Below, one piece after another: positions 11,793-29,149 of a stretch of 41,097 nucleotides of DNA. This DNA is from Minisyncoccota bacterium (GTDB lineage: Bacteria; Patescibacteriota; Minisyncoccia; Phycocordibacterales; GWA1-40-21). The position numbers were made by a program, and so were the translations under genes. Each line of letters opens with the position of its first letter. Position 1 is the first letter of the stretch. The notes under the pieces are model-generated. The model was given only the letters and a program-made list of their open reading frames with translations. It did not search any database and was not told the origin of the DNA. The stretch covers positions 1-41,097 of the forward strand of contig JAVHRR010000021.1 in the NCBI GenBank assembly GCA_036171775.1, in the 5' to 3' direction.

Positions 11793-11864
11793 TCCGGAGT
11801 AGCTCAGCGGTAGAGCAATCGCCTGTTAAGCGATTGGTCACAGGTTCGATCCCTGTCTCCGGAG
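11793..11864 (+). tRNA. tRNA-Asn(GTT), CCA not encoded; island integration site
   Basis: TCCGGAG/CTCCGGA acceptor stem, ATCGC-CTGTTAA-GCGAT anticodon arm, GGTTCGATCC T-arm. Confidence 0.97.
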
Positions 11865-11879
11865 CAGTTAGATTTGGTG

Positions 11880-11914
11880 AAAGCGACCTGCCCCCGTCTG
11901 GGTAGGTCGCTTTT
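11880..11914. terminator. bidirectional terminator after tRNA-Asn
   Basis: AAAGCGACCTGCCC...GGGTAGGTCGCTTTT. Confidence 0.8.
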
Positions 11915-12341
11915 ACTTTATTTTGGTCTTATTAGTACCTTTAATCTCTTTCCATGAGTATTGAGTCACTTTACCTTTTTTATCTACAGAAAAAACATAA
12001 AGTAGTAATTTTTTAGCAACTTGCCAAGGAATACGTCGAAGGGCTATTTTTGCACTCACTTCTGGTAACCCTAATGCATAATAATTTCTAGTAGAGCCGC
12101 CGGATTTCATTCTTGTAACAATTTGACCTAGTGAATAAACAAAAGCCACTTCATCTCCCTGTCTTATCTTACCCTCACCTTTTGCTTCTATAAAAAAATA
12201 TCTAGAATATTTAAAATTTTTAGCTTTTATGTCTACTCCATGATCATACAATCCACCGAATTCAAAATGACCCCAACCATTTGCTGATAGCCATTTAATA
12301 ATTGAATGTTTTACAAAATCCTCAGATATTTTTTTATTCAT
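11913..12341 (-). CDS. small PD-(D/E)XK restriction-endonuclease-like protein
   Basis: SEDFVK...GVDIKAK...FIEAKG catalytic pattern. Confidence 0.78.
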   Translation of the reverse strand: MNKKISEDFVKHSIIKWLSANGWGHFEFGGLYDHGVDIKAKNFKYSRYFFIEAKGEGKIRQGDEVAFVYSLGQIVTRMKSGGSTRNYYALGLPEVSAKIALRRIPWQVAKKLLLYVFSVDKKGKVTQYSWKEIKGTNKTKIK

Positions 12342-12404
12342 AATTATTTATTTAAATCTTTCCTTAGCAATAACCTTTCTTGTTAGTTTGTGCTTAGTTT
12401 CGTC

Positions 12405-13319
12405 TTATTTTATAAGATCCACAAATCTTACAACCTTATTTTTACTCCAATCCATAATTTTTACATACCTTCCATTATGTTTATTTGGTCTATTATATTT
12501 ACAACCTTCACACTCATATTTCTCAACTTTACCAGGTATTTCACCGAAGAGTGTTAATTCACTAGGAATAACCTTATTTTCATGACGACAGCTCATAGGA
12601 ACAACATACCTGAGGCCATCCATTTGGAAAATATTCCAACTAATAATTTCGGCAAATTCTTCTTGTATTTTGAGTGTTGGTCGTCCATTAAACTGAGCCT
12701 TGTAATAATCAATAAACGTGTAAAGTAAATTCTCACGCGCAAGTAGAACGTTATCCCCCTGCCAATCATAGCCATAACTTGCCTTAAAGACCTCTTTTGC
12801 CCAAAATATCCATTCTTTTTTATCTTGGCAATATTTCGATAGTATTTTTAATTTTTTATCTAAAAAACCAACACGTTTATTTATTGGAATTATTTTTCCA
12901 GTATGTGCGGTAGTATCATAGCGACTCACTATAAAAGGTGCTTCCCCACACGTAATTTCTAGTTTGAGTTCTTTCACATATTCTTGCCAATTATTTTTAT
13001 CATGTAATTGGTTTTCTACTGCCTTATTAATTTGATTTATAGTTTTAAGTGGTGTAAAAACTTCAGCCTTATCTTTAGTACGGCGACGCTGCTCTTCCAA
13101 GCTCTTGGCTGCACGCGGTTGTATAAGTAATCCATTTTTGCCAGTCACTAGAGCAGGCGCAATACATTTTTTAGATAAATACTCTTTACCGCGCTCTTCA
13201 TACGAATCTGTTGCCCAGATAATATTCTTCTTTGTTGTTTGATCAATAAGCAAAATATCAAGCAAATCACCAGTTTTACGTAGAATATTTTCAAGTATAT
13301 CAATATTTGGCCTATACAT
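12405..13319 (-). CDS. R-M associated methyltransferase-like subunit
   Basis: LLIDQTTKKNIIWATD, RTKDKAEVFTP, LEITCGEAPF (motif I-like), YGYDWQGDNVLLAREN, WNIFQMDGL. No NPPY motif; C-terminal CEGC. Confidence 0.82.
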   Translation of the reverse strand: MYRPNIDILENILRKTGDLLDILLIDQTTKKNIIWATDSYEERGKEYLSKKCIAPALVTGKNGLLIQPRAAKSLEEQRRRTKDKAEVFTPLKTINQINKAVENQLHDKNNWQEYVKELKLEITCGEAPFIVSRYDTTAHTGKIIPINKRVGFLDKKLKILSKYCQDKKEWIFWAKEVFKASYGYDWQGDNVLLARENLLYTFIDYYKAQFNGRPTLKIQEEFAEIISWNIFQMDGLRYVVPMSCRHENKVIPSELTLFGEIPGKVEKYECEGCKYNRPNKHNGRYVKIMDWSKNKVVRFVDLIK

Positions 13320-13324
13320 GATAA

Positions 13325-16300
13325 TTAGTCAAAATAACCAACAATATTCTCCTCAGACTTTTCTTGAATATTCTTCAAAATAAAATTCTTAATTGTGTCG
13401 GGTATTTCATACTTTTTAATTAGTTCAATATCAATTTCCTTAATTGATTTTTTCCACCACGTTTCAGAATAATTCTGTACAGGAACAGCTGCCCAAGCAG
13501 TAGTTGAATGCTGGGAATGCTTATTAAGATATAAGAGTGCTCGTGCGAACTTGGTCATTAAGAATTTTGCGTGTTTTTTTGCATCCGTAATAGTATTGAA
13601 GGGGCCCTGTTCTTGGTAAGTCTCAGTAGAGATTTCATGAGGCTTACCTACTATAACATCAGAATAAGCACCGCCCAGACCTGTACCCTCTGACATATTT
13701 CCCCAAGCATATGGAACAAATACTTTAAATTTATCAAAGGCTTTAGTTTTCCTTGGTATCGGGTAATCCTTTTCTAAGTGACACACCATTCCAGAAAGAC
13801 CGTATAATTTAATGTCGTCTACATTTCGTTTTTCTTTACTTATTGGTGGTAGACAATATTTAGCAGGATCTTTAATTACATCCGTGCGTAAACCATATGG
13901 CTTGAGTACTGATGTAATTGATTGCATAGGAGAAAAGTTATTAAATGCCATGACTATTTTTGCCATTTCTCTAATCTCTTTAGGTTTACTGTCATGATTC
14001 TGCTCGGTTCGAAGTAATGTTATTTGAGGGTTCTTCCCATCTGTATAAATTTTTTGTTTACCTTTTAAGCCGTTGTTATAACTATGCTTCCACAAAATTA
14101 TGTTCGTCCATTCTACTCCGAGGATGCCAGGAAAGACATTCTGCCGATTATCTATAAAGACTATCTGAGGATCTTCCTTGATATCTTTATTATTAAGTAG
14201 CCTTAAATTATTACCGTTCTTGGGGTCCTGCCATCCAGTTGGAAAAATTAACGAAACATTTTCACCAAGCTCACGGCTTGCTAAATAAAAATAAGGGTAA
14301 ATCTGCTGATGATTTTCTCCTTGATATGGGGGATTTCCTACGACTGCTGTAAATTTCATATTTTTTCCAAATTTATTTTTAATTAAATCATACAAAGCAT
14401 TTTGATTTTGAGGCACTAATGTATCTTCGTTCTCAAAATATACAAAGTTCTTTTCTACCTTATACCTAACTTTTTTTAATTCTGGCTGTCCACGCATAAA
14501 GCCAAAAATGTTATCGCTAGATATTTAATGTAATATTTTTCTTGGCGCAAAACCGTAAACTTGGTGCGTTAATATATGTTCCAAGCGTTTATACTTATTG
14601 GGTATTTGGCGCTCTAAATTATTATACAGCCTTTTGACTATTTCAGTTATAAACAACCCTGATTTCATGTATGGATCAAAGAATGTGTGGTCTTTAGATT
14701 TAAATATGCCTGGATTCTGCTTTTCAAGGATATCGATTATTATCTTAACAACAGGTTTTGGAGTGTATATCTGGTTAGTTTGCTGCGGAGGGATATAATC
14801 AAAGATATCTAAACCGCTATCATTTTCATAATAATTTGCTAGCTCTGCTTTACGACTTAAAAATTCAGCAATTGAGGCATTAAAGACTTCTTCATTAAAA
14901 AGGTTATGCTTATCACGCAGTTCTTGAAACTGTTCTTTGGTAATACCGACAAGTTCTTGAAAGGTTGTGGAATCTATATATTTTTCAAAATTATCGAGTT
15001 TGGTATCTGGCTTACCGTATGCCATCAAAATCATTGGAATAGCACGGGCAAAGTAACGCAGGTGATCATGAATTGAATTCTCTTGTTCAATTTTTTCCTT
15101 ATCGGCCTGTTTTTCGAGCTTTATTTTTGTATCTGAAGGGGGTAAGTCATCAATAGTTGGAAGTCGATCTGTTGGTATATCTGGGTTGTCTTGTATTAAT
15201 TCCTCATATTTTTTCTTACCCAAGATTGATTCATTTAGAATAAGATTACCATCATCGTCGTACTCCAATTGTGGCTCAGTTATAGGATTTTTGTTTTTAT
15301 CATGTTCCACACGCCCTTTTTTAATAGTACCCATTTCATTCAATATCTCTCGAGCGCTAGCGGGCAGATGAAAAATATTGCCAATGTTGAAAAGTTTATT
15401 TGAAGTAATAAATTTTCCGTCAACGATCTCCTGTGTCATCAACTTAAGAGGCATAGTAACAACCTCGTTGGCATCGAGCTCTTTCATCTCACCGTATTCA
15501 TCTTCAGCTACCACAGTCAAGAAGTTGAGTAATTTTTTTACCTTATCTTTAGCTCCTTCGCCACCTCCGATAACACTCTTGGCGTAATCTTGAAATATAA
15601 GCAATAGTCTGTCTGGTGCAAAGTCAAATACATAACAGTTTTCTTTTACCATGTCATTACCACCTTCATCCTTGTAACGCCAAGGATTTTGTCCGCGGAA
15701 AGCAGCTTGAAGATACTTGGTGGCAGAAGTCTTACCACCCTCAGCACCATAAAGCATCAATACCGCAGTCCACGGCTTTACAGTTACACCAGTTGTAAGT
15801 TGACCACATGAAAGTGTGATAGTTTTTGTTTCAAGTGATTTTTTATCCTCTCCAATAATTTTTTTGATCTTATCTAGTGCGGTTTTACCTTCATGTTCAG
15901 TATCACCCTTAGCAGCAGCATCAATAATTTCATAATCTGCAAAAATCTTGCGTGAAGGAGTGTTCTCCCCCTGCTCCTGCATGAGTTTTTTAAGTGCTTT
16001 TACTGCAGAAACACCCGGTAATAGCCAAAATGTATGTCTAAGTTCATCACGAATTTCTCTATCAGCGAACGGGAAAGGTCGAGCACTTTGGTTATTTTTA
16101 CTGTTAATGCCAAACATATTATCTAGAAACTTTAATACCATTTCTTCATATACAAACTTGGTCTGTGAGGTCTTAAACAGTTCGTTGAGATCAAATGCGT
16201 ATTCACCATCGGCAACAGTGGCATTGAGTGTTTTAGAAAGTCTGTATGCAAACATATTCATGCGAGGAAGTTCGTAGTAAGGATTTTCGCCATCAGTCGG

Positions 16301-17353
16301 ATCCCAGTTTTCCTTGGCAGATTGTTCATCCTCGTAAGTCCAGTTAAAGATTTGTTTGGTATTGAATTTTTTACTTGTTAGTGCCTTAAACGGTGTACCT
16401 GAAAGATGGAGCGTAAAGTCAGCACGCAGATTTTTAAAAAGTTTATAAGCGTTTTCAGTTTCGGTCGCTTCATGACTTTCGTCTATAATGAAGAGATCCC
16501 AGGATTCATTAAAAATCCATTGATTCTTTTGCTTAAAAGCTTCGGAATTATCCGTCTCTCTACCTTTAATATCCTGCAATGATATAAAAAAAATCGTTGA
16601 CTCTCCATTTTTTATGGTAGCTTTAGTTTCACTAACATTTAGCGCACGACCTTGTAGATTACCTCCGGTAGTAATGTGCTTATTGTCTTTTGTAGAACCG
16701 AACTTAAAGATTCCTTTAGGTTGAATAAACTGTCGATAATCTGTATACCAAGAGTCAGAAATAGCTGGACGATTTGTGACAATAAGTACTTTTTTGGCAT
16801 TAATTTTCTCGGTGAACCAGTAACTAGTTAAAGTCTTTCCAAACCGTGGCTTAGCATTCCAAAGAAATTCACGCTTCCCATTGAGTGAGTTATTCCAATA
16901 TGCATAAGTTTGATCAATAGCATCCTGTTGTTCATCGCGAGGCTTAACGCTCAAGTCAATTTTATTTAGAATATCAGTATCAAAACCTTTCAAGTTTTTG
17001 CGTGCTTCTATGGCTTCGATAGCTTCCTTTTTTGTCATTTTATACCATTCCGAAAAACGTTCACTTTTAGAATTTTTCTTTTTCTCACGCTCATACTTTC
17101 CAGTAGCGTCAATTATCGCATGAACTTCATAATCACGGAATGATTTGCCATTTTTATCAATTGCTTCAGTTGTATAGAGTGTTTCCGCTTTAATATTATC
17201 AGCTTCATTTTGATCTTTAACACGACCAGAATTAATACCGGTTTGGTCACCAATTTTTAACCAACCTAAATGTTCTTTACTATCAGGGTGATGATAGACA
17301 TAAATTACTTTTTTCTCCTTACCTGTAGCTTTGATACTATTCATATAAATCAA
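13325..17353 (-). pseudogene. fused restriction-modification enzyme (nuclease, SF2 helicase, N6-adenine MTase, TRD; Eco57I-like), interrupted by one in-frame TAA at 14525-14527
   Basis: ORFs 14525-17353 and 13325-14497 are in the same frame, joined as ...FAPRKILH*ISSDNIFGFMRGQ. Upstream part has YVY..LKIGD (GIY-YIG/T5orf172-like), AKPRFGKT, DESH and FFDPYMKSG; downstream part has VVGNPPYQ. Confidence 0.82.
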
Positions 17354-17515
17354 ATATTTAGGCTCTTTTTGCCATAATTTGATTAAATTCTAGCATACTT
17401 ACTTATCAAAAAACAGTCGTTTGTCACAACTAAATTTTCAAAAAATAAATTAAATTACTTTTTTGTCACAACAAAACTAGATCGAGAGCGAATTTTTATC
17501 TCAATAATGTATAAA

Positions 17516-18832
17516 TTAATAATAAATTTTTTTATCCTTAATTTTTAACCTACTTTTTAGACATTTTAGTAATTCTCTCTTTGCTTCTCGTGTACCATTT
17601 TTAAGTATATGCTTGGTATAATTTCTTACGTCTGCATCAATAGGTTTATTATCAAATTCTGTTTCTTTACCCAGAACCATGTAACTAAATTGTTGATATT
17701 TTTGGATTTCTTTTTGTATTTCTTCTTTTATTCCTATTTCATCAATATCTATCTTGTCTATGATCTCTAATAGTTGAATTACAAGATCTTCTTCTCTTAT
17801 TGTTTTTTCTTTACAGTACCTATCTGCTCCATGAGTGCAATGATAATATACATATCGATGGGTTTTCCCATTTTTGCAGTGTTTAAATTTTTCTTCTGCA
17901 CTTATACCCGAACCACAAGCTCCACAGAAAAATAGTCTGGTAAAATCAAATTCGTTTGTTCCAGGATGTCTGCGCGGTGGAGCTTCTAAGTTTGCCCGGG
18001 CTTTTAAATACAATTCTTTTGTAATAATTGCATCGTGAGCACCTCTATACCATTTTCCGCTTTTCATAGGATATTCAAATTCACCATAATAATAAGTTTC
18101 CTTAAGAGTTGTGTAAATAATACTCAAGACAATTCTTTTACCTGATCGTGTTGTAAAATTTTTTTCTTTATTTAACCATGTAAGTAAGTCTCTACCGCTA
18201 ACATTGTCGAAAGCAACTTTTTCAAACATTTCTTTTATTATAGGGGCTCGTTCGGGATCAATGAGGACTCTTTTCTTTCCTTTGTCAGCATACTTATCAT
18301 GTATATATCCAAGCGGTGCCATTCCCGGTCTATATCCTTGTTCGCATTTAGCTCTTAATCCCCTTTTTACATTTTCCCCTTTATGATCGTTTTCTAGTTT
18401 TGCCTGTGAACACAAAATCATTAAAAGAAATTTCTCATTTGGAGAATTTGTAAATCTCTGGCCATGAGTTCTTATATCGATCATCTTTCCTTGATCCATA
18501 AGGTCAACAATTTGACCAAGATCTCCTGCATTACGACTTATTCTTGAAGGATCCCAAGCAATTATTCCATTAAACCTGCCTGATTTAATATCAGCTATAA
18601 GTTCTTGATATACAGGTCGTTGCCCTGAGTCCTTGGCTGAGTGAGATTCCATTTTGACCTCAACTACATTAAGTCCTTCTTTGGTCGCCATATCCATCAT
18701 TTCTTTGACTTGAGAGTCAATAGATAATGCCTGCAGCTCATCTTGCTCTGATGATTTTCGTGCATAAAGGCAGTATCTGGTAGGTACTACGACTTTTGGT
18801 ACAAATACTCGTTCTTGCAACTGAGTTTCCAT
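17516..18832 (-). CDS. large serine recombinase (resolvase, recombinase and Zn-ribbon domains)
   Basis: YCLYARKSSE..Q..SIDSQ, ESHSAK..GQRPVY, SRISRN, GYRPGMAPLGY, HDAII, FCGACG...YYHC...C. Confidence 0.95.
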   Translation of the reverse strand: METQLQERVFVPKVVVPTRYCLYARKSSEQDELQALSIDSQVKEMMDMATKEGLNVVEVKMESHSAKDSGQRPVYQELIADIKSGRFNGIIAWDPSRISRNAGDLGQIVDLMDQGKMIDIRTHGQRFTNSPNEKFLLMILCSQAKLENDHKGENVKRGLRAKCEQGYRPGMAPLGYIHDKYADKGKKRVLIDPERAPIIKEMFEKVAFDNVSGRDLLTWLNKEKNFTTRSGKRIVLSIIYTTLKETYYYGEFEYPMKSGKWYRGAHDAIITKELYLKARANLEAPPRRHPGTNEFDFTRLFFCGACGSGISAEEKFKHCKNGKTHRYVYYHCTHGADRYCKEKTIREEDLVIQLLEIIDKIDIDEIGIKEEIQKEIQKYQQFSYMVLGKETEFDNKPIDADVRNYTKHILKNGTREAKRELLKCLKSRLKIKDKKIYY

Positions 18833-18892
18833 ACATCAATCAATGACGCATGCCATCTAGTAAGTCTAGGTCTTAAAAGTTGATAATTATGC

Positions 18893-19579
18893 CTATTTCA
18901 GGTCTTGTTTTAATGCAGTTAATATTAATCCAGCCTCAACGTCTAAAGTGTCATCTATAACATTAGCTGGTATATGTTTAATATTTATATATTTAGGTCC
19001 CAAAGCAACAACGGGTCTTAACATATTTATCTGTGCTCTTTTAAAATCATTATCCAGTAGATGTTCAAGTTTTTTAAAAAAAGAATTGATACTTTTTTTG
19101 TATGAATCTATTCCATATACTTTCGATTCAATTCCTGTATTTATTAATTTAATAGTACTGTCAAAAATAAACGTCGGTTCAAATTCAACTGCTTCTAATA
19201 AAGAATTAAACTTTTTGCATGCAGAAACCGCAATATCAATTTGTTGTGATAACGTAAAGTTTATTCCTTTCTTTAAAACAAAGATTCTTTCTTCATTGAT
19301 ATAAACTTTATTAAATTTAGAATGCTGAAATACATGAAATTTTTTATCTTTTTTATCCAAATCTAAATTTTTGCGTACACTGGAAATATAATCGATTAAA
19401 TCTTTAACGGATTCTTCTGCGTCACGAGAAATCATAAGGAACATATCTTCAATTTCTTTTTTGTTGTTTTTTAGGCACTTATTTTTTTCATATAACTCCT
19501 TTAAATACCAAAGTGTGAGCGATGAAAAAATTGCTAAAAATGATCCTATTAATGCCTGATATTCATTTATAAATTTCAT
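18893..19579 (-). CDS. hypothetical protein with an N-terminal TM helix
   Basis: 228 aa; YQALIGSFLAIFSSLTLWYL; third gene of the RT operon. Confidence 0.75.
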   Translation of the reverse strand: MKFINEYQALIGSFLAIFSSLTLWYLKELYEKNKCLKNNKKEIEDMFLMISRDAEESVKDLIDYISSVRKNLDLDKKDKKFHVFQHSKFNKVYINEERIFVLKKGINFTLSQQIDIAVSACKKFNSLLEAVEFEPTFIFDSTIKLINTGIESKVYGIDSYKKSINSFFKKLEHLLDNDFKRAQINMLRPVVALGPKYINIKHIPANVIDDTLDVEAGLILTALKQDLK

Positions 19580-19595
19580 AGTAAATAATAATTAT

Positions 19596-20327
19596 TTATA
19601 ACTTTAACGTCTTCTTCTTTTCCCTACTGCCAAATATGTCCATAATTATATTTCCCACTCGACTTAGTGTAATATTAATACCACCTCCATCAACCTCAGC
19701 TTTATATTTGCTTGAATTAGGATTTTCACGTAATTTTTTATAATCATCCTCATCATCAACCCTAACATCCACAGGCTCGTATTCTAAATCAAACAGACCA
19801 GAGCCTATCAAACCTCTAACGTCTTCACTGTTCATAAAATCTTTTGCTTTATTCAAAAACCACTGTAAATCATAATTTGTTATTTTTTGAAGAACATTAG
19901 AAGTTTTTAAAAAATCATCATAACTAATTTTACCGTTAACAAAAAACTTAAAAACGTTCGCGACTCTTTCGGAATTTTCGAAATCATTGCAACTATCTAT
20001 AATGTAAAGCAATTTTTCCCCAACTTTAACTCGATATTTTTTAGATTCATCAATCTCTTTTATTATTTTATTTCTATCCTCAACAGAAACATTCTTTAAA
20101 CCATTCAGAAAAGAGATAATTTTCTTCAAAAATAATTTATCATGTATATTAGCACCGAGCTTTGTAATTCCTATTACAGTTCCAACGATAGGCAAACTCT
20201 GAACAGTTGGATCTTTAATAATTGAATCTAAAGCTAACTCTGTAATATCAATAGCAATTCCTTTTAAATCGGTATCTTTTAGTGTTGAATCAAAAGATTC
20301 TTGTATTGTAATATTATTGTTTTCCAT
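19596..20327 (-). CDS. hypothetical helical protein (possibly Abi-alpha/DUF4393-like)
   Basis: 243 aa; starts 12 nt after the RT stop; LPIVG...DKLFLKKIISFL pattern. Confidence 0.75.
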   Translation of the reverse strand: MENNNITIQESFDSTLKDTDLKGIAIDITELALDSIIKDPTVQSLPIVGTVIGITKLGANIHDKLFLKKIISFLNGLKNVSVEDRNKIIKEIDESKKYRVKVGEKLLYIIDSCNDFENSERVANVFKFFVNGKISYDDFLKTSNVLQKITNYDLQWFLNKAKDFMNSEDVRGLIGSGLFDLEYEPVDVRVDDEDDYKKLRENPNSSKYKAEVDGGGINITLSRVGNIIMDIFGSREKKKTLKL

Positions 20328-20339
20328 ATATAACCTAAA

Positions 20340-21989
20340 TTATTTTTTTGATTGTTTTATCAATTGTCTATATCCAAAAACACTAATAATTTTATATAGT
20401 GGTATTTCTTTTTGCTTACCATTATTTACTAAAAAAATTGTTTCATCATTAAGAACTATTTTGCTTTTATTTATATCAAAAAATGATTCAATCAACCAAT
20501 TAGACTTATATTTTTTAATAATCTTATTTGTTATTTTTTTATCTATCTCTAGCTTACATCTTCTAGTAATATACAAAGTCCAAATTAATGGAAAAATTTC
20601 GTCTTTTTCTAGAAAGCTTTCTATAAGTCTTACTAAATAATCTTGAATACATGTTTTAACTTCTTTGTTAGAAGTTCCTTTATAACAATAGTAAATAAAT
20701 GCTAAAAACGATGGCCACGCACTAGGAACTAGTTTACACAACGTACTAAAATGTGAAAAAACTGCAATATAATTTTCTTCAATATCCACCAAGTGTGGGT
20801 TTGCATCTGTTACTTTCTTTTTTATTTCTATTTTTTCGATACCTTCTCTTATAAAGTACCCGAGGATGGCTTTTATTATATACTGATCTTTGTACTTTTT
20901 ATAAAGGTCACGAGTAGTTTTTAACCAAAAAATTATATCCGATTCATCTAATTCAAAAATCTTTTCTTTTTTATTAAGTTTTTGATCAATTTCATTTTTA
21001 ATTTGTTTAAGTTCCACTTTCCAATACTTTGTATCTTCAAGTGAATCTACGTCGGAACAAAAAGTTTTGTCGTCATTTACGCCTAGGTGGTACTCATCGA
21101 GTATTTTTTGCATTTCCATCCGAATTTTATCAGCCAAATCCTGATTCTTTGTCAAAAAAACATAATCATCCTTAAATCTAAAGCCAATGTATTTATTACT
21201 TTGTTTAATAAATTTTTTTGAAAGTTCTTTGTCGATTGATCTTAACAATATTTCAGAACTAAAGTCTGATGTATATGGACCGATAAGAATACCTTTAGTT
21301 CTATTTCTGTTCAACTTTCTTGTTAATTCATCGAGCTTATTTGCTGGATAATTATAATTATGAAATTTACATTTATCACGCCCTTTGCATAAACATGTAT
21401 TATCATGACGTGTTCTTTTGTCCAATGCCCATGCAAGTGAATGGACATAAATACTTGGATAAAAATCTTTTATATCGAGAAAAACACAATGAGTATAGTC
21501 TCTTAGCAATGACTGTAGATCAATTTCTGATAGTACCTTGTGATTACTAATACCAATTTCTGATCTTTTTTTGCCTTCAATAAAAAGAGGTACACTATAG
21601 GGAATTATATTATCTTTTTTTTCATCTAGCGTTAAATGTTTTTTAAATATTTGCCAATTTTCTGAAACAAATTTCGTTAAATAAAGATGATTTATAAAAG
21701 GTGGAACAGATAAAGTTCTTAGTGTATATTTTGTTTTTGGAAAATACAATAAAGTTGGTTTGCCGTCGGGAATATATTTTGAATAATCAATTTTTTTAAG
21801 ATATTTTTTAACAGATGCGTTTTTAGCTAATCCGCATGAAAGAAAAAAATCTGACGGCAGAAATTGTTCCTCTGGAAAATAACCGTCATTAATAAAATAG
21901 TCAGAAATTTTTTCTTTAGTTAATTTATTAAGGTTATTATTTATTTCATTAAACCTCTTATTCTTTGTTTTAATGGTGTAACTGCTCAT
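20340..21989 (-). CDS. UG/Abi-type (defence-associated) reverse transcriptase with an alpha-helical C-terminal region
   Basis: GYFPE, FPKTKYTLRTLSVP, LDIKDFYPSIYVHSLAWAL, GILIGPYTSDFSSEI, FRFKDD, LGVNDDKT. Start is ATG 21989 or TTG 21995. Confidence 0.9.
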   Translation of the reverse strand: MSSYTIKTKNKRFNEINNNLNKLTKEKISDYFINDGYFPEEQFLPSDFFLSCGLAKNASVKKYLKKIDYSKYIPDGKPTLLYFPKTKYTLRTLSVPPFINHLYLTKFVSENWQIFKKHLTLDEKKDNIIPYSVPLFIEGKKRSEIGISNHKVLSEIDLQSLLRDYTHCVFLDIKDFYPSIYVHSLAWALDKRTRHDNTCLCKGRDKCKFHNYNYPANKLDELTRKLNRNRTKGILIGPYTSDFSSEILLRSIDKELSKKFIKQSNKYIGFRFKDDYVFLTKNQDLADKIRMEMQKILDEYHLGVNDDKTFCSDVDSLEDTKYWKVELKQIKNEIDQKLNKKEKIFELDESDIIFWLKTTRDLYKKYKDQYIIKAILGYFIREGIEKIEIKKKVTDANPHLVDIEENYIAVFSHFSTLCKLVPSAWPSFLAFIYYCYKGTSNKEVKTCIQDYLVRLIESFLEKDEIFPLIWTLYITRRCKLEIDKKITNKIIKKYKSNWLIESFFDINKSKIVLNDETIFLVNNGKQKEIPLYKIISVFGYRQLIKQSKK

Positions 21990-22149
21990 ATTCAATAAAG
22001 TATTCTATATACAAAATATGATCTTTAAGACTGCTAAAATTTAGTCAAAAATACTGTTGACAACCCCACTTCGCAAGGCACTCAACTTAAGCTAAGGTAT
22101 AGCACAATATCGTTTTTTACGATAGAATATCAATACAATTAAATAAAAG

Positions 22150-22340
22150 ACGGCCTAACCCCTTTAGTTTACTAGAGGATATGGTTGCAAACCCCGCTAG
22201 AGAATAAAGAACTCCTCGTCAGAGTCACTCTAGCGGGTCATATCTGGAAACGGGTATGGGTGGGGCCGAAAGGTTTCATCGCGATGGCGGGGAGCTCTTT
22301 GTTCACGAAGACTCTTCTCATTGCTAAAACCCGCTAGAGT
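22150..22340 (+). ncRNA. structured leader / c4-like antisense RNA candidate
   Basis: 20-bp closing helix (22202-22221 with 22285-22304), two GAAA-capped hairpins, and internal ACTCTAGCGGGT complementary to both upstream and downstream CCCGCTAGAG. Confidence 0.65.
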
Positions 22341-23414
22341 ATGTCAATAATAATTTCAACTAATGGCGATAAGGCTGTTAGATTAGATAAAACTTCTTTT
22401 GATAAAGAGAAGTTTCTCCAAGAATATATTTATAAGAATCCTGAAAGTATTCCTCTTTATGATATTAAAGAAGATATCAGATTACTTGTTTTGGCTCGCG
22501 AATTTAGAACTGAAAGTGGACCGATTGATGCCATCGGTATAGATGGATCAGGAGAACTATACATAATCGAAACAAAACTCTACACAAATGCTGATAAAAG
22601 AAATGTTATTGCTCAAGCACTAGATTACGGAGCATCTCTTTGGAATCATTCAAACGATTTTAATGAATTTTTGGCCACTTTAGATGAACATACACAAAAA
22701 GTATTTAAACTTAAAACAATAGAAAAGATTAAAGAGTTTTTTGGACTAACAGACGAAGATGTTCAGTTAGTGATAGAAAAAGCCAAGAGTAATCTTAACG
22801 ATGGAATCTTTCATTTCGTTGTTTTAATGGACAGAGTAGACGATAGACTCAAAGATCTTATACGTTTCGTAAACCAGAACAGTCAATTTGATATCTATGC
22901 TGTTGAATTTGAATATTACAAACACGAAAAACAAGAAATCATTATTCCTAAGATATTTGGTGCAGAGGTAAAGAAAGATATCGCAGTAAGTAGCTCTTCA
23001 TCAGGTGAAAGAAGAAAGTGGAATGAGGAGTTACTTCTCGCAGATGCAAAAAATAATTATTCTGACAAAGAGTACACAGCTTTCAAAAAGATTTATGATT
23101 TCTCAAAAGAAAAGGCGGATTATGTTAAGTATGGAACAGGTAATAAGTACGGATCATTTAATCCAGTGTTCGAGAAAATATGTTCAAGATCTCTTTATAC
23201 TTTGGGTACGGATGGAAGGATGTCATTTAACTTTGAATGGATTAAAAACAACGATATACAAGAAGTGGAGTTTATAGATAAGTATGCGAAAGCCATGAAG
23301 GATATTGGTTTTACTATTCCAGATAATTATAGAGAAGTTCGTCCAAGTGTCCTATCTGACGAATGGGCTAACAGAGCAGATGAATTTATTAAAGCAATCA
23401 GGAGCCTAATATAG
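22341..23414 (+). CDS. PD-(D/E)XK nuclease with a NucS/EndoMS-like nuclease domain
   Basis: EKFLQEYI, AREFRTESGPIDAIGIDGSGELYIIETK, RNVIAQALDY. Confidence 0.82.
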   Translation: MSIIISTNGDKAVRLDKTSFDKEKFLQEYIYKNPESIPLYDIKEDIRLLVLAREFRTESGPIDAIGIDGSGELYIIETKLYTNADKRNVIAQALDYGASLWNHSNDFNEFLATLDEHTQKVFKLKTIEKIKEFFGLTDEDVQLVIEKAKSNLNDGIFHFVVLMDRVDDRLKDLIRFVNQNSQFDIYAVEFEYYKHEKQEIIIPKIFGAEVKKDIAVSSSSSGERRKWNEELLLADAKNNYSDKEYTAFKKIYDFSKEKADYVKYGTGNKYGSFNPVFEKICSRSLYTLGTDGRMSFNFEWIKNNDIQEVEFIDKYAKAMKDIGFTIPDNYREVRPSVLSDEWANRADEFIKAIRSLI

Positions 23415-23895
23415 ATTGCTTTTCCTCATTGGTTAAATTATCATCTTTTTCAGAAAAATCAGTAATTATAAATTCAGTAGGTTTTTTTCCTTGTTTGGCT
23501 TGTTCATTTTCTTTTCTAAATTTTTCCATCTGATCTTCTGTTAGTTTTCTTGTTATTACTTCTATAGCAATTTTTCTTACTATTTCTGAGTCTTCAAAGA
23601 ATACATTTTCCATTCTTGGTTTAACATATCTCTTACAATTTCCACCTAACCAATACTTCATTGCCCAAGGTTCACCCTTAGTAGCTTGGCTTATCAATTT
23701 ACTTTCAACCAAGTCAGTTACAGAATCTCTGCCTCTCCAAAGACATTCGTCCATGTCGTCTGCAAAATTTTCCACTGTTTCTCTCCATTCATAAATAGTA
23801 GATTTTGCTATACAAGCTCTTTTTGCAGCAATTGATACGTTTGGGATTTCCTCGAGTATCTCCAGAAATTTTTTTCTTTCATTAGGCGTTTTCAT
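23398..23895 (-). CDS. HTH protein resembling a phage terminase small subunit
   Basis: KFLEILEEIPNVSIAAKRACIAKSTIYEWR...FADDMDE, DLVESKLI...GEPWAMKYWL; overlaps the methylase 3' end. Confidence 0.72.
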   Translation of the reverse strand: MKTPNERKKFLEILEEIPNVSIAAKRACIAKSTIYEWRETVENFADDMDECLWRGRDSVTDLVESKLISQATKGEPWAMKYWLGGNCKRYVKPRMENVFFEDSEIVRKIAIEVITRKLTEDQMEKFRKENEQAKQGKKPTEFIITDFSEKDDNLTNEEKQSILGS

Positions 23896-25219
23896 TTAAT
23901 TTAATAGCTTTTTTCCCAGTTAGATTTTCCCATCTCTTTTTTATTACTTCTGCATAGATGGGACACTTTTCCATGATGTAACATCTTCTTTTTAGCTTTG
24001 TTGCAGCTATAAGAGTAGAACCACTTCCACCAAACGGTTCAACTATAAGATCATCTCTCTTTGTTAAGACTTTGATGTATGGGATCAGAATTTCTATTGG
24101 TTTTGTTCCAAAGATAATTCCCTGCCCAGATGATTTTTCATCTGAAGCGATATTCTCTATGAAATCTGTAGGACAAATTTTCTTTCCAGCCTCATAACCT
24201 TCCCAATGAGGTTTACCAGACGTAGCAAATAATGCGGTCTCATATTCTTCTTGAAGTAATGGTTCATTTTCTGGTTCCATATTTAGTTCTACAGTTCCTG
24301 AACTACCAACAATTGCAAAGTCGTGTTTGTTAAAGAATTTATACTTAGCAGAAAATCCCTGAACTCTATTTGGAATGTGCCAGATAATTGTATTTCTATA
24401 TTTCCAGTGCTTTTCTAATTCATTCCATATTAATCTGAGATTTTTTGGATTCTCATAAATAATAATTGAAAAATCTGGTTTTTGAATCTTTGCCATATTG
24501 GCCATCCATAGTTCCGTAAAGTTATCAGGTAATGTTTCTGTTCCAATATAAACTCTGTCTCTCTTGTGACCAAAACCCGATGTAACTTCCCCATTCTTTT
24601 TCTTCTTTCCTTTTAAGTAATCTAAAACATAAGGGGGGTCTGTGAAGACCATACTAGCCTTTTCTGTTCCCATGAGTTTGAGTACATCTTCCTCCTTCAT
24701 GGAGTCACCAACGAGCAATTTAGAGCCATCTAGGTCATACATATCGCCTGTTTTAGCTTCTATTTCGCCAATTTCCATCTTAGCTAGTTCTTTCTCAATA
24801 TCGAACTCTTCAGGAACATCTTCGACTGCAAAAATGTCATCGATCTCTTCACTTGAGAATCCTACGTTAGATAATATGTTTTCATCAAACTCTGATAACA
24901 AATCTAGATCCCATTCACCTTGGTTCTTATTTAATCTCATATTCAACTCTTTTTCTTTTTCAATCGTAAGATCAACATAAACAACAGGCATTTCCTTAAA
25001 ACCAATCTCTTTACATACTTCTAATCTGAAATGTCCACCAATTACAATATTTTTTCTTTCACTATTACCGTTTGTAATAATTGGGTCAACATTTCCGAAT
25101 CTTTTTATGCTTTCTGTTAAATCTTTCTTTTGTTCTTCATCCCATTTTCTTGGATTGTATTCAGATGGAATTAATAAACTAATATCTACATACTCTATTT
25201 TTAAATTTTCTTTATTCAT
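23882..25219 (-). CDS. ParB/Srx-N domain fused to an N6/N4 DNA methyltransferase (phage-type)
   Basis: LIPSEYNPR, IGGHFRL, LLVGDS, FTDPPY, TKPIE, EPFGGSGSTLIA. Confidence 0.92.
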   Translation of the reverse strand: MNKENLKIEYVDISLLIPSEYNPRKWDEEQKKDLTESIKRFGNVDPIITNGNSERKNIVIGGHFRLEVCKEIGFKEMPVVYVDLTIEKEKELNMRLNKNQGEWDLDLLSEFDENILSNVGFSSEEIDDIFAVEDVPEEFDIEKELAKMEIGEIEAKTGDMYDLDGSKLLVGDSMKEEDVLKLMGTEKASMVFTDPPYVLDYLKGKKKKNGEVTSGFGHKRDRVYIGTETLPDNFTELWMANMAKIQKPDFSIIIYENPKNLRLIWNELEKHWKYRNTIIWHIPNRVQGFSAKYKFFNKHDFAIVGSSGTVELNMEPENEPLLQEEYETALFATSGKPHWEGYEAGKKICPTDFIENIASDEKSSGQGIIFGTKPIEILIPYIKVLTKRDDLIVEPFGGSGSTLIAATKLKRRCYIMEKCPIYAEVIKKRWENLTGKKAIKLNENA

Positions 25220-25239
25220 TTTTGTAATTTAGTACTAAT

Positions 25240-25310
25240 AAAAAAACACCTAGACACGAGTCCGTATTTTCATACAGGCTAATGTCTGGGCGTTCCAGAC
25301 GATGCTCTTC
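25240..25310 (-). promoter_or_regulatory. terminator/attenuator hairpin in the methylase leader
   Basis: Minus strand AACGCCCAGACAT...CTGTAT-GAAA-ATACGG...GTGTCTAGGTGTT plus U-tract; upstream GTCTGG can pair with CCAGAC instead. Confidence 0.55.
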
Positions 25311-25329
25311 TAATTGTACTAACTTAAAC

Positions 25330-25596
25330 TTATTGTATTTGTATTATTTCAGAATAACTAGCGATAAGGATTTTCATTTTACATTGAGGACAAGTGATGG
25401 AAATTTGAGATGGATTACCCGGTATCTCTATGTAGGTAAATTGTGGAGACTCTGATCTTCCACCAACCATCATTTGTATTCGGTCATTCCTTAAATCTTT
25501 CTTATATAATAATTTGCCACATTCGCAAGTATTTTCACTCCAAACTGAGCCATCTTGATGTTTAATATGTTTAACTCCGGGAGTTCTATTCTGCAT
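25330..25596 (-). CDS. zinc-ribbon protein, Mu Com-like
   Basis: TCECGKLL...ISITCPQCK; probable start ATG 25596; directly upstream of a DNA methylase. Confidence 0.65.
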   Translation of the reverse strand: MQNRTPGVKHIKHQDGSVWSENTCECGKLLYKKDLRNDRIQMMVGGRSESPQFTYIEIPGNPSQISITCPQCKMKILIASYSEIIQIQ

Positions 25597-25830
25597 GTGA
25601 TTAATTATTATGCTTATAAATGATACCTCCATATTTTCGACAAAATACTTAATATCATCAATACTAATTTTACGCGGGTTTTCTAATAAAAGAAGACCCG
25701 ATCTTTAAAGCAAACCAAAAATATTAGGTTGTAAAGCTCACCGTCACAAAATGACAAAATTAAAGGGTTTATTAGCAGAAATAAAGCAAAAAGTGACATT
25801 ATAACACCATTTTAAGCCATATTTTATATG

Positions 25831-26391
25831 CTATTTAGATAACTCTTTGTACATTTTTTGTATACCGTTTTCATCTAAATACTCACTTATAAAAAATTTT
25901 TTATCTTTATAATCAAAAGCTTCTTTCTTTTGGGGGTTTATCCAAATAAAAAAATTATAACTATTATCACCATAGGAAATTTTATATTTTTTAGCCAACT
26001 TTCTTATTACTTTAGTTGGAATAGCAATTGTGTGTGGTTTTAAAGTTCGTCTGCCTATTTTTGATGATTCACTTATCACATAAATTAAAAAAATAAAATA
26101 ATCCGCGGTTGAATTATCGATTACCTTTTTTGGAAAGAAAAACCATCCACCAGATCCATCACCGTGGTTTTTTGATTCTTTTTCTTTTGGTTCGTAAGCC
26201 CTACTTCCTTTTACTTGTATAGAAAGCAATTTTTTAGTTTTTGTATTTACTAGCATCAAATCAATATCTTTCATTTGTGCATTAAGAGGCATAAAAACAT
26301 CTATATTTTTATTGTGGGCGTCTCTTAGTATACCTGTGACAACAGCTTCATCTGTATTTAAACTCCAAAAATTTTTATATGCTTTTCCCAT
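25831..26391 (-). CDS. PD-(D/E)XK nuclease-like protein
   Basis: DEAVV...KDIDLML...SIQVKGSR, ADYFIF. Confidence 0.75.
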   Translation of the reverse strand: MGKAYKNFWSLNTDEAVVTGILRDAHNKNIDVFMPLNAQMKDIDLMLVNTKTKKLLSIQVKGSRAYEPKEKESKNHGDGSGGWFFFPKKVIDNSTADYFIFLIYVISESSKIGRRTLKPHTIAIPTKVIRKLAKKYKISYGDNSYNFFIWINPQKKEAFDYKDKKFFISEYLDENGIQKMYKELSK

Positions 26392-26444
26392 ATATCAATA
26401 TCATATCACAAAATTTTGTTTCAGTTTTTTTACCAAAATAATAA

Positions 26445-27350
26445 TTAGAATTCTTTTTTTAAACTTAATTTCCCTTCAAATTTGGTTGCGGTCCATCTTT
26501 TATAATGTTTCTTAAATGAATCATTGATTGGGTTGTCTGCAAAAGGGTTATTTACAAAATAACAATCATCACCAATATCATCTGGATGACTCGAAACTAA
26601 ATTATCTGAAAACAAAACACCACTTACAAAACTAAATTCATTATTTGTAAAATAATCTACTAAAACTGGCTCGTTGTTAGTTTTATTAATACTATTTCGG
26701 TGCGTATAATTTGTTTCCCCAGTTTTTATATTAATACTCATAAACTGGAAACCGAATAGGGCTTTTATAATATTTGGCATATTCGAATCCTCAACATGCT
26801 GTAAATCTGCTGTATTCAATGCAATAATAAAAGACATCTTATTATTAAACCAGCTTTTACTTTTCCATTTTTCATATTGATCTAATGCCTTACTTTTTAT
26901 TGCCTGTGTAATACGTAAGATCATTTGATCTGTTGGTACATTCATGACACGTATTTCCTGTGGCGTTTTAGCCACATACATTTCTGGAACAGAATCTGAT
27001 TTTATTGAATCTCCTTTTGTTGGGGCAACACACTCAATATAAATTGACTCATCTATAATAAAATCTGGACCTTCGTCTTTGGAGCTTATTATAGTTGCAT
27101 CTTTAAGTAATATGTTGCCAACATACATCTCCCATGACCTTTGATGAAAATTTATTTTAATTTGATCTTTAAAATGCGTGTCCGCATATGGTTTATAATT
27201 TTTCCATAATTTATCAAATTTTTCTCGGTATTTTTTTAAACTAGAACACACTATAAAATATGGATCATATTGAGGGTATTTTTCTTTTAATTTCTCTACT
27301 TCGCTACTTTCTACTACTGGAAGTTCATCTATAAAAATTGAATCGCTCAT
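26445..27350 (-). CDS. hypothetical protein with a PD-(D/E)XK-like motif
   Basis: FHQRSWEMY, EGPDFII..IYIECVAP, FVNNPFA. Confidence 0.72.
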   Translation of the reverse strand: MSDSIFIDELPVVESSEVEKLKEKYPQYDPYFIVCSSLKKYREKFDKLWKNYKPYADTHFKDQIKINFHQRSWEMYVGNILLKDATIISSKDEGPDFIIDESIYIECVAPTKGDSIKSDSVPEMYVAKTPQEIRVMNVPTDQMILRITQAIKSKALDQYEKWKSKSWFNNKMSFIIALNTADLQHVEDSNMPNIIKALFGFQFMSINIKTGETNYTHRNSINKTNNEPVLVDYFTNNEFSFVSGVLFSDNLVSSHPDDIGDDCYFVNNPFADNPINDSFKKHYKRWTATKFEGKLSLKKEF

Positions 27351-27524
27351 TTTGCAATATTACCACGCAGTGTCCGATTTGTCCGATTCTTGTCAAAAAA
27401 GCTATATATTACTTTGACTCAAAGTGACCTGTTTGCATCCCGATCTAGCTTCAAAAGTAGCTGGAAAAGCCTCGCAACATCTCGAAGGTCTTGGTCCTGA
27501 ACCTGTATGGGGAGCAGTTAGTAC

Positions 27525-27690
27525 AATAGCGCCTTAGGGTGCTATTTTACTTTACTGCTCCGAGAAGTCAGCGAATAGCTGACGTGACAGGGATCGAAAA
27601 CCTTGAGTGTATCGCACGGAACGTAGTGAGTACGATACGAAAGGTCTACTGTCCTCGTAGAGAAAGATGCCCTGTCATTCAGGAGTTAGG
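27525..27690. repeat. hairpin plus inverted and direct partial copies of the tRNA-Asn 3' end
   Basis: AATAGCGCC-TTAG-GGTGCTATT hairpin; GACAGGGATCGAA (27586-27598) is the exact reverse complement of 11845-11857; CTGCTCCG at 27555; GATGCCCTGTC at 27666-27676. Confidence 0.6.
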
Positions 27691-27790
27691 GAATTAAAAC
27701 CTTGATTCATTTGAGTTTCTTAGTTCACTAACAATTTCATTTATTTTCTCTACTTTACACATGACAAAAAATCAACTAAAATGATTATAT

Positions 27791-28735
27791 ATGAAAAAAT
27801 ATTTAATGTTTTTGTTTTTTATATCTATTTTTACTATTATAAGTTTTTTGCCAAAAAGCACTTCTGCAGCTGGTGTGTTTGAAGTAGACGATATTAAAGA
27901 CTCATACTCTGCGATTGTAGGTCAGGATTTTATTGCTACAATTTCTTTTTTTTATTCTGGTTCAGAATATAAACCAAAAGTAGTACTAGTCAGTAGAAAC
28001 TTTCCTCCTGGTCTAAAAATTGGGGCGGTCAATACTTTGGGGACTAGCTTTTACAATGTTCAATATGAAGGAGTTCCAGAAGCTATTGGTGATTATTCAT
28101 TAACATTTTCATTCACTGATGATTATGGGGCTATGGTAAATAAAAAAGTAAGTATTAAAATTATAGGATTAGTTTTTAACAATATATCAAATTTACCTAG
28201 AGCAATAGTCAACACACCATATTCATATGACATATATTATGATTACCCACAAATTTTTGGGGAAACACCCCGTATAACTTATTACAATATTCCTGAAGGG
28301 TTAGATTTATCAGAATCATTTAAACAACCGAATGCAGTTACAAATTTTTTTCACTTAAGACTAACCGCGAAAAAATCAGGAATTTATACTTTCTTAGCTA
28401 AAGTTTATTGGGGTAAAGTGCTTCTGGCATATGATATACCTCTTACTATAATTGTCGATGATGTAACCACAGTTCAAGAAAACAATCAACAACCTGTTGT
28501 TAATATTGTCCCTGTTAATGTTCCCAAGCCAATAATTGTTCCAACAAAAACTAAAAAGCAAACGACTGAAAAAATTGTTAGTGCTACAACAACTAGTGCA
28601 ATAACCACTGTAACAATCGATGCTGTTTCTAGTTCAACAACTAATTCGTTGACTGAACCAACAACAGATAAAAAAATAATTACAAAAACTGAAAAGTGGT
28701 ACACCAAACTTTGGAAATTTATCTGGAAATTATAA
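27791..28735 (+). CDS. secreted/surface protein with Ig-like beta-sandwich repeats and a Thr-rich linker
   Basis: Signal peptide; FPPGL...GVP..GDYSLTF and LPRAIVNTPYS...IPEGL repeats; amphipathic C-terminus KWYTKLWKFIWKL. Confidence 0.75.
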   Translation: MKKYLMFLFFISIFTIISFLPKSTSAAGVFEVDDIKDSYSAIVGQDFIATISFFYSGSEYKPKVVLVSRNFPPGLKIGAVNTLGTSFYNVQYEGVPEAIGDYSLTFSFTDDYGAMVNKKVSIKIIGLVFNNISNLPRAIVNTPYSYDIYYDYPQIFGETPRITYYNIPEGLDLSESFKQPNAVTNFFHLRLTAKKSGIYTFLAKVYWGKVLLAYDIPLTIIVDDVTTVQENNQQPVVNIVPVNVPKPIIVPTKTKKQTTEKIVSATTTSAITTVTIDAVSSSTTNSLTEPTTDKKIITKTEKWYTKLWKFIWKL

Positions 28736-28795
28736 TTTCGTTTTAATATTACCTGAGCCGCCACTTGAAAAAACCAAGATAATATTATTATCAAC

Positions 28796-29149
28796 ATGAA
28801 CATTTCAAGAAAAAAATTCACTATTCTTTTCATCATTTGCGGGTTCGCCTTTCTTTTTATTACCACCTCACTTTTGGGATCTACGGGCCCACGAGGCTTC
28901 CCTAAGCCACCAGACTCTTTGCTGTTAATAGACTCGCCTGTAGGCTGGAAAAGCACAATATCCACAATTATCTCACCGATAAAAATTGTGCTGATAGGAC
29001 CCTTATTATTACCAAGTGTTAATTTTTTGAAGGAAGATCCGCCACCACCATTTGTTGGAATATATTTTATTTTCTACTGGACTATCCTTGCCTTAGCTAT
29101 CCACTATCTCATCAACAAATTAATACGCTTCAAACTAACTCAGAAATAA
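28796..29149 (+). CDS. hypothetical membrane protein
   Basis: 117 aa, 2-3 hydrophobic segments, DPPPPF motif. Confidence 0.7.
   Translation: MNISRKKFTILFIICGFAFLFITTSLLGSTGPRGFPKPPDSLLLIDSPVGWKSTISTIISPIKIVLIGPLLLPSVNFLKEDPPPPFVGIYFIFYWTILALAIHYLINKLIRFKLTQK

Follow-up and report, generated by a model that had tools for sequence, protein, structure and literature searches.

What is the task of a structured RNA that stands before quite different genes, and that has one of its own segments written a second time at the start codon of the gene behind it? The question is raised by a contig of 41,097 nucleotides (nt) from a Minisyncoccota bacterium (GenBank assembly GCA_036171775.1, contig JAVHRR010000021.1), the whole of which we call the window. 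Upstream of an open reading frame (ORF) for 357 amino acids (aa), its plus strand carries a member of the LOOT RNA family and three short complementary segments that we call the 5′, middle and 3′ boxes (Table 1). We consider it moderately probable that this LOOT RNA is a cis-acting translational on/off switch in the leader, with its own promoter, of a cargo gene of an integrated phage-like element.

LOOT is a motif from the collection of Weinberg et al. 2017 (PMC5737381) and has been catalogued since that year without a function. The main text of that paper does not discuss it, and the supplements may already describe its gene context or a 3′ extension. Where the Rfam 14 and 15 papers (PMC7779021, PMC11701678) and the CaCoFold preprint mention LOOT, it is for its structure and not for its function, and full-text literature searches that combined LOOT with these bacterial groups gave nothing on function. 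The literature found describes structure only. The analysis below would turn this orphan motif into a testable regulatory device, a leader close to its promoter that precedes genes for accessory, defence and lysogenic-conversion functions carried by mobile elements. To the Rfam model it adds a conserved long-range helix and, for one subtype, a covarying segment that may mask the start codon. Both bear on the control of translation in bacteria of the candidate phyla radiation (CPR), which largely do without Shine–Dalgarno sites and have very few known regulators.

Identity and extent of the element

A cmscan search matches window positions 22152–22277 to the full length of Rfam LOOT (RF03000, model positions 1–121 of 121) with 73 bits against a gathering score of 46.4 and an E-value of 5e-12, and a whole-genome search with the LOOT model recovers the same match. 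The element is thus a full-length family member. In the consensus alignment it has the LOOT architecture: P1 enclosing P2, a long P3 hairpin, and two terminal GNRA hairpins, P4 and P5, the latter being where the Rfam model ends. The outer ten base pairs of P3 are perfect; its inner part carries non-canonical marks and fits the consensus poorly. The 206-nt region has a folding energy of −78.9 kcal/mol (z = −5.0), and none of 200 shuffled sequences was equally stable. All folding energies given here are for nested structures without pseudoknots, and those of individual states are rough.

An earlier sequence-only reading of the window had seen this region as an antisense RNA architecture like that of P1 c4 and P4 CI, and as a candidate for an undescribed system. 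Checked item by item, every helix and box that it listed is present in the sequence, including the complementarity of AGAGTC (22221–22226) to GACTCT (22310–22315). The identity that it proposed is a different matter. What it described as an upstream site and a loop segment together make up LOOT helix P3, and its two GAAA hairpins are P4 and P5, so the core is a catalogued motif. The cmscan search that it had called for returns LOOT only: C4, c4-2 and c4-a1b1 have no match at the gathering score in the whole window, nor at E ≤ 10 in a scan of 21900–22500. We therefore reject membership of the c4 families.

LOOT was found in 49 of the 151 relatives' genomes searched and in 30 of a phylum-wide sample of 151, the window's own genome being counted in both, and in none of 14 control genomes. 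It also scores above the cut-off on three of the four IMG/VR viral contigs that matched a P4 pattern. The window's genome (759 kb, 0.76 Mb at 92% completeness) holds three copies. The other two, on contigs C6 (13971–14096) and C47 (12402–12539), each adjoin a divergent serine recombinase. The three copies carry three different P3 sequences; the one on C47 has a 3′ box and the one on C6 has none.

For comparison we used a set of 73 LOOT loci, the window's own included, all oriented to one strand and aligned with MAFFT, an alignment that is not fitted to structure. These loci come from related genomes, hence counts among them are not counts of independent events, and the 16 + 7 distinct box sequences described below are the better measure. 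The outer stem of P3 has 9–13 perfect pairs in all 73 loci and is highly variable in sequence; P4 is almost invariant.

The conserved unit is longer than Rfam LOOT, as it takes in a promoter, a 5′ motif, a long-range helix, a hairpin that we call P6 and, in one subtype, the 3′ box. The long-range helix had been noticed in the sequence-only reading as a 20-bp closing helix (22202–22221 with 22285–22304), and it stands, with 16 Watson–Crick pairs, three G-U pairs and one A·C mismatch. It proves to be a conserved feature of the family that joins the P3 loop to the strand after P5, outside the Rfam model. Over 15 pairs of alignment columns, 91.3% of the cells are paired, against 44–53% when the partner is slid by one to three columns. 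In thirteen of the 15 pairs both partners vary. Slid partners score no more than 0.136 for covariation where the true ones score 0.456, and none of 500 shuffles attained the observed values. The many G-U pairs make the structure specific to the plus strand. The A·C mismatch (alignment columns 93/194, window 22211/22295) is kept in 52 of the 73 loci with covarying pairs on either side, and it may be a tertiary or protonation-dependent contact.

A U-rich run (CUCUUUGUU) overlaps or follows the long-range helix, and the same run pairs, with covariation, with the A-rich 5′ strand. The 3′ strand of the helix has an alternative use in P6. P6 has a duplex energy of at most −12 kcal/mol in 39 of the 73 loci, compared with 21% of 3166 cross-locus controls; for at most −14 kcal/mol the figures are 22 of 73 and 8.4%.

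At the 5′ end, a motif ACAAYURAAUA (with up to two mismatches) is present in 65 of 73 loci, 16–20 nt 5′ of the start of the Rfam model in 52 of them. A TAnnnT hexamer, typically 6–8 nt before this motif, occurs in 62 of the 73, with a TGn extension in 22 of these. We read the pair as a predicted −10 element and transcript start. A scan of 21950–22450 with a generic sigma-70 pattern gave no plus-strand promoter. At the other end, 66 of the 73 loci have an ORF on the same strand whose start is no more than 110 nt from the model end (median 63 nt). Of 70 upstream neighbours, 43 are divergent. The arrangement is that of a leader.

Boxes that covary at three sites

In the window genome, the box (at a length of 10 nt or more) is found at only these three sites. 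How general is the third of them? For each locus we took the 14 nt before P4 and sought the longest exact match to their complement within 200 nt downstream of the model end, with the boxes of unrelated loci as a cross-locus control. Of the 73 loci, 29 have an own-locus match of at least 8 nt and 27 have one of at least 9 nt; the controls give 69 of 5028 (1.4%) and 14 of 5028. The matches lie 32–57 nt past the model end, save in L020, where the match is at 73 nt and within the ORF. In 27 of the 29 loci the 3′ box ends no more than 5 nt from the ORF start codon, the exceptions being L020 and L026 (13 nt off). The position directly before the ATG, already noted in the sequence-only reading, thus recurs in related loci.

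Among the 28 start-adjacent loci, the list of matches holds 16 distinct box sequences. Each of them matches its own P3, which means that the boxes covary across three sites. Invariant boxes had been named beforehand as the outcome that would favour DNA sites; in the homologous leaders collected here, boxes differ between loci and match within them.

The pattern was replicated in 40 further loci from a phylum-wide search. Of these, 36 were analysed; L090, L112, L119 and L120 were left out of the count as their P4 was not located automatically. In the set of 73, the P4 of L025 was placed by hand. A box of at least 9 nt adjoins the ATG in 9 of the 36, against 3 of 1226 controls (0.24%), and these loci add seven new box sequences. 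The same arrangement is found on a viral contig (L074) and in a Kaiserbacteria metagenome-assembled genome (MAG; L080).

Does the box belong to the leader or to the gene? At L068 a protein 68% identical to that of the window stands behind a LOOT with an entirely different box triple. The window's own triple (ACCCGCTAGAG) stands before unrelated ORFs in L030, L043, L045, L048, L054, L056 and L058. Since one gene family has different triples and one triple precedes unrelated genes, the box, judged by these sequences, belongs to the leader rather than to the gene.

The genes around LOOT are correspondingly varied. Among 69 downstream ORFs, 52–487 aa in length, 27 have a Pfam match and 42 have none. 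The matches include superinfection-immunity proteins (three), staphylococcal-type nucleases (two), HNH (two), methyltransferases (two), and further an Ltp lipoprotein, T5orf172, DUF4268 and a PIF1 helicase. Membrane and secreted proteins are also among the cargo, which is mostly not toxin-like. The sequence-only reading had tied the leader to a toxic nuclease and expected toxin–antitoxin or abortive-infection behaviour. A tie to a nuclease or a toxin does not fit a leader that precedes such diverse products, which lend the expected behaviour no direct support, and a dedicated type I toxin–antitoxin pair is rejected on this ground. Of 69 upstream neighbours scanned, 11 are large serine recombinases and six are of the ParB-methyltransferase type (five with both domains, L068 with the methylase only). 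Many others are restriction- or defence-like.

A proposed translational switch

How could the boxes act on the gene? In the switch that we propose, pairing of the middle strand with the 5′ box would give P3 of the LOOT fold and leave the start region open. Pairing of the same strand with the 3′ box would close a four-way junction of P4, P5 and P6 and bury positions −12 to −1; initiation would then be blocked and translation off. The 3′ box would act as a mask over a Shine–Dalgarno-independent start site, with the 5′ box as its competitor, and the two folds would interconvert.

The calculated energies are consistent with such a competition. The duplex energy of the middle box is −18.3 kcal/mol with the 5′ box and −21.7 kcal/mol with the 3′ box. 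In the minimum-free-energy fold of the window leader, the middle and 3′ boxes close the four-way junction. Two constrained folds of this leader come to −78.0 and −74.1 kcal/mol. Over 28 loci the two states differ by a mean of 1.8 kcal/mol, the masked state being the lower in 9 of the 28. When forced into 'state 1', RNAfold unfolds P4 to pair it with the 3′-box region, which we treat as an artefact of nested-only folding. On steric reasoning, the full 19-pair long-range helix and P3 cannot both be complete, as they share G22202 without a linker. P3 and the distal 10 pairs of the helix (−15.7 kcal/mol) could, on the other hand, form an H-type pseudoknot, which nested folding does not score.

Burial of the start should block initiation because the organism hardly uses Shine–Dalgarno sites and its start regions are normally A/U-rich and unstructured. 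In the window genome, a Shine–Dalgarno-like core precedes 21 of 298 long ORFs (7%), against 11 of 298 after shuffling (3.7%), and start regions are about 80% A+U with 10% G. This suggests that initiation is largely Shine–Dalgarno-independent. Against that background, the G+C fraction of positions −16 to −2 is 0.43 in loci with a 3′ box and 0.20 in those without.

Several points weigh against the switch. The first is that 44 of the 73 loci have no 3′ box, and that the box follows the LOOT subtype: of 21 loci whose long-range helix is of the CUCC type, 20 have it, compared with 6 of the 50 whose helix is of the CCC type. The box is therefore an add-on of one subtype, and the core must have another function. 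Secondly, the pseudoknot of P3 with the distal long-range helix could lock the open state, and the comparison of energies ignores pseudoknots. Thirdly, the long-range helix with its U-rich run could end transcription before the 3′ box is made. A comparison of G-U with A·C changes gave no signal of selection at the RNA level at the 3′-box flanks, which are conserved A's and so uninformative. The functions of the 69 cargo ORFs point to no ligand or common signal as the trigger. Finally, the transcription, RNA ends and folding of the window LOOT are all predictions; a search for sequencing runs that hold the sequence listed 12 of the DNA type and none of RNA.

A wider and more tentative proposal is that LOOT is a portable cassette of CPR phages and integrative elements, made of a promoter, a structured core and a re-writable address of 10–13 nt, with one common factor that flips all copies. 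The address would be written three times, as the 5′, middle and 3′ boxes, and each cargo gene would be masked by its own leader. The one to four LOOT copies of a cell would have no cross-talk. A single factor or signal, e.g. prophage induction or superinfection, would have the invariant core (P1/P2, P4, P5 and the long-range helix) as its target. If correct, this would be a new class of programmable, Shine–Dalgarno-independent translational switch. The combination of an arbitrary address and a constant core, if functional, would also interest RNA engineers.

Comparison with known systems

The nearest parallels are the c4 RNA of phages P1 and P7 and the P4 CI RNA. The c4 RNA recognises its a1b1 and a2b2 targets through loop segments a′ and b′, and the C4 and P4 CI leaders are processed by RNase P to a stable small RNA. 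Like these, LOOT is a leader RNA with a segment complementary to two sites of its own transcript, one upstream and the other downstream, where translation starts. The differences are considerable. LOOT has no sequence or structure match to the c4 families. It has one recognition segment and c4 has two. In c4 and P4 CI recognition sequences are exposed in hairpin loops; in the LOOT consensus the segment forms the 3′ side of the P3 helix, and the middle box is unpaired only in an alternative fold closed by the long-range helix. Its host is a CPR bacterium and the genes it would control are diverse cargo, whereas c4 controls an antirepressor; in the c4-icd-ant operon, C4 RNA is needed to repress ant (PMC8198154). 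Of the analogy drawn in the sequence-only reading, the logic of pairing sites up- and downstream with the latter at the start codon survives and the family relationship does not. By analogy, the likeness is thus one of mechanism and not of membership.

Translational riboswitch platforms and RNA thermometers also have two exclusive pairings of one strand, with an anti-sequestor on one side and the start region on the other; the two predicted pairings of LOOT are close in energy. However, the segment that would be sequestered in LOOT is an arbitrary, locus-specific address and not a Shine–Dalgarno site. The genes that LOOT would regulate share no function and point to no ligand or signal.

A third parallel is offered by the PeSL elements of T4-type phages, mobile promoter–stem-loop cassettes that stand before variable accessory genes in mosaic genomes. 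LOOT resembles them as a portable promoter plus structured element before variable accessory genes. It is much larger than PeSL and tertiary-looking, and has a covarying long-range pairing and a putative start-codon mask.

Alternative explanations

Could LOOT be a c4-like antisense RNA all the same? It would be terminated or processed to a stable small RNA, whose exposed middle box binds the 3′ box, either in trans or in cis, and silences the gene, with immunity- or toxin–antitoxin-like behaviour. The strongly covarying long-range helix would close a loop that holds an unpaired middle box, P4 and P5. The U-rich run follows it, the boxes are locus-specific as specificity determinants would be, Rfam types LOOT as 'Gene; sRNA', and the loci are in phage-like islands. 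We nevertheless consider this unlikely. The c4 models do not match even at a permissive E-value, the middle box is a helix strand and not a hairpin loop in the family consensus, and a pattern scan of 21950–22450 found no simple intrinsic terminator. Most downstream genes, among them those for membrane and secreted proteins, methyltransferases and superinfection-immunity proteins, are not toxin-like. The box-less LOOT on contig C6, the one examined in the window genome, has no convincing trans target: its best other match is 12 nt in an ABC-transporter ORF (window position 33694), about what chance would give.

The absence of the 3′ box from most loci invites another explanation, to which we give a somewhat lower chance again. 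The core may be some other sensor or effector (a ligand or protein site, a ribozyme, or an element that modifies RNA polymerase, as phage put RNAs do), with the 3′ box serving one subtype as an expression platform. Conservation of the core does not depend on the 3′ box; P4 is almost invariant and there are two GNRA loops. The core lies immediately behind the promoter, and the persistent A·C mismatch (52 loci) as well as the 44 box-less loci would be in keeping with such a role. Against it, nothing points to a ligand, a protein partner or a cleavage site. This explanation is compatible with the leader switch and not opposed to it.

It is very unlikely that the boxes act as DNA, either as protein-binding operators or as recombination junctions that bound exchangeable gene cassettes. 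The 5′ and 3′ boxes are direct repeats with the middle box inverted to them, the similarity between loci that share boxes stops right after the 3′ box, and serine recombinases are frequent neighbours (11 of 69 loci). However, the 5′ box and the middle box form the two sides of one covarying RNA helix, the structure to which this helix belongs is strand-specific, and many G-U pairs of the long-range helix would become A·C mismatches on the other strand. The boxes are hypervariable, unlike a conserved operator, no further copy lies at the far end of the gene, and the tight spacing to the start codon has no rationale at the level of DNA.

Scarcely credible, and largely refuted by gene context, is the idea that LOOT serves the adjacent UG14/Drt6-like reverse transcriptase as its non-coding RNA partner or template, in a retron-like or defence-associated reverse transcriptase (DRT)-like system: that gene lies 157 nt upstream, but on the strand opposite to LOOT, and a reverse-transcriptase domain is present in none of 69 other upstream and none of 69 downstream neighbours scanned.

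The phage-like island

The window LOOT lies in an integrated phage-like island (11793–29000) beside a tRNA gene (11793–11864). The parts of the element and the genes of the island are collected in Table 1.

Table 1. Parts of the LOOT element, the gene behind it and other genes of the island, in window coordinates
Feature	Position	Strand	Basis or remark
Predicted −10 hexamer, TAGAAT	22124–22129	+	Conservation only
Conserved 5′ motif and predicted transcript start, ACAATTAAATA	22136–22146	+	Conservation; outside Rfam model
LOOT core: P1/P2, P3, GNRA hairpins P4 and P5	22152–22277	+	cmscan, RF03000
5′ box, 5′ strand of P3, CCCGCTAGAG	22193–22202	+	Pairs with 22228–22237 in Rfam consensus
Long-range helix, 5′ strand, GAATAAAGAACTCCTCGTCA (A-rich part and ACUCCUCGUCA)	22202–22221	+	Sequence check, family covariation
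Middle box, ACTCTAGCGGGT	22227–22238	+	Complementary to both 5′ box and 3′ box
P4 hairpin, GAAA loop, CATATCTG-GAAA-CGGGTATG	22239–22258	+	Rfam alignment
P5 hairpin, GAAA loop, GGTGGGGCC-GAAA-GGTTTCATC	22259–22280	+	Rfam alignment, folding
Hairpin P6, alternative use of long-range helix 3′ strand	22281–22301 with 22306–22324	+	Minimum-free-energy fold of window; enriched over loci
Long-range helix, 3′ strand, including U-rich run 22296–22303	22285–22304	+	Helix covariation
3′ box, copy of 5′ box, ends at start codon, ACCCGCTAGAGT	22329–22340	+	12-nt exact match, 0 nt from ATG at 22341
Downstream ORF, 357 aa, conserved hypothetical, weakly nuclease-like	22341–23414	+	ORF list, homology searches
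Eco57I-like methylase	13325–14497		Island
T5orf172 and ResIII helicase	14525–17353		Island
Large serine recombinase	17516–18832		Island
UG14/Drt6-like reverse transcriptase, 551 aa	20340–21995	−	PADLOC RT_UG14 7e-58, Drt6 4e-55; FKDD active-site motif
Terminase-small-subunit-like gene	23398–23895		Island
ParB-N6/N4 methyltransferase	23882–25219		Island

What does the gene behind the window LOOT encode? The sequence-only reading had assigned it to the PD-(D/E)XK nucleases, for which the case is weak. The protein matches the PADLOC candidate family PDC-S11 at 2e-19. A match to NucS (E = 1.7e-4) reaches 20.8 bits, far below the cut-off of 216. A D..ExK-like motif (IDAIGID...IIETK), seen by eye, is invariant in the family of the protein. 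Searches of Pfam and of PDB sequences gave no match. The AlphaFold model, which has a mean pLDDT (predicted local distance difference test) of 68 with a confident C-terminal domain (about 230–357) and a poor N-terminal part, gave no match to a known fold at E ≤ 0.001, and NucS chains come up only at E of about 0.1. The neighbours of the protein in the Atlas are without a name.

The protein has 1960 homologues, the best 120 of which are 58–84% identical, and those listed are unnamed or hypothetical. The sources of these best 120 span phyla (Minisyncoccota, Yanofskybacteria, Lentisphaerae), and relatives also occur in Candidatus Saccharibacteria, Kaiserbacteria, Parcubacteria and Paceibacteria MAGs. 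Such high conservation over several phyla suggests that the gene is horizontally mobile. The species-genome collection yielded five homologues, each of them with a LOOT upstream. On this comparison the gene is a frequent LOOT cargo, yet one of many.

At the orthologous locus L041 the boxes are the same and the downstream protein is 79% identical. This locus has no reverse transcriptase, and in that place, directly upstream of LOOT, is a serine recombinase 53% identical to that of the window. Because of this locus, the reverse transcriptase beside the window LOOT is, as far as gene order can tell, incidental. Two unannotated ORFs (243 and 228 aa) follow the reverse transcriptase on the same strand, and the region 18893–21995 of the minus strand is likely a DRT-type defence module.

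One further locus, L071 (G031:C73), has a second, partial P1/P2-like element (GACCTAACCC...GGCACGGTC) about 60–100 nt past the end of the LOOT model and before the ORF. It may be left over from a tandem or recombined LOOT. Behind it, and 3 nt before the ATG, the box recurs as a 7-nt copy.

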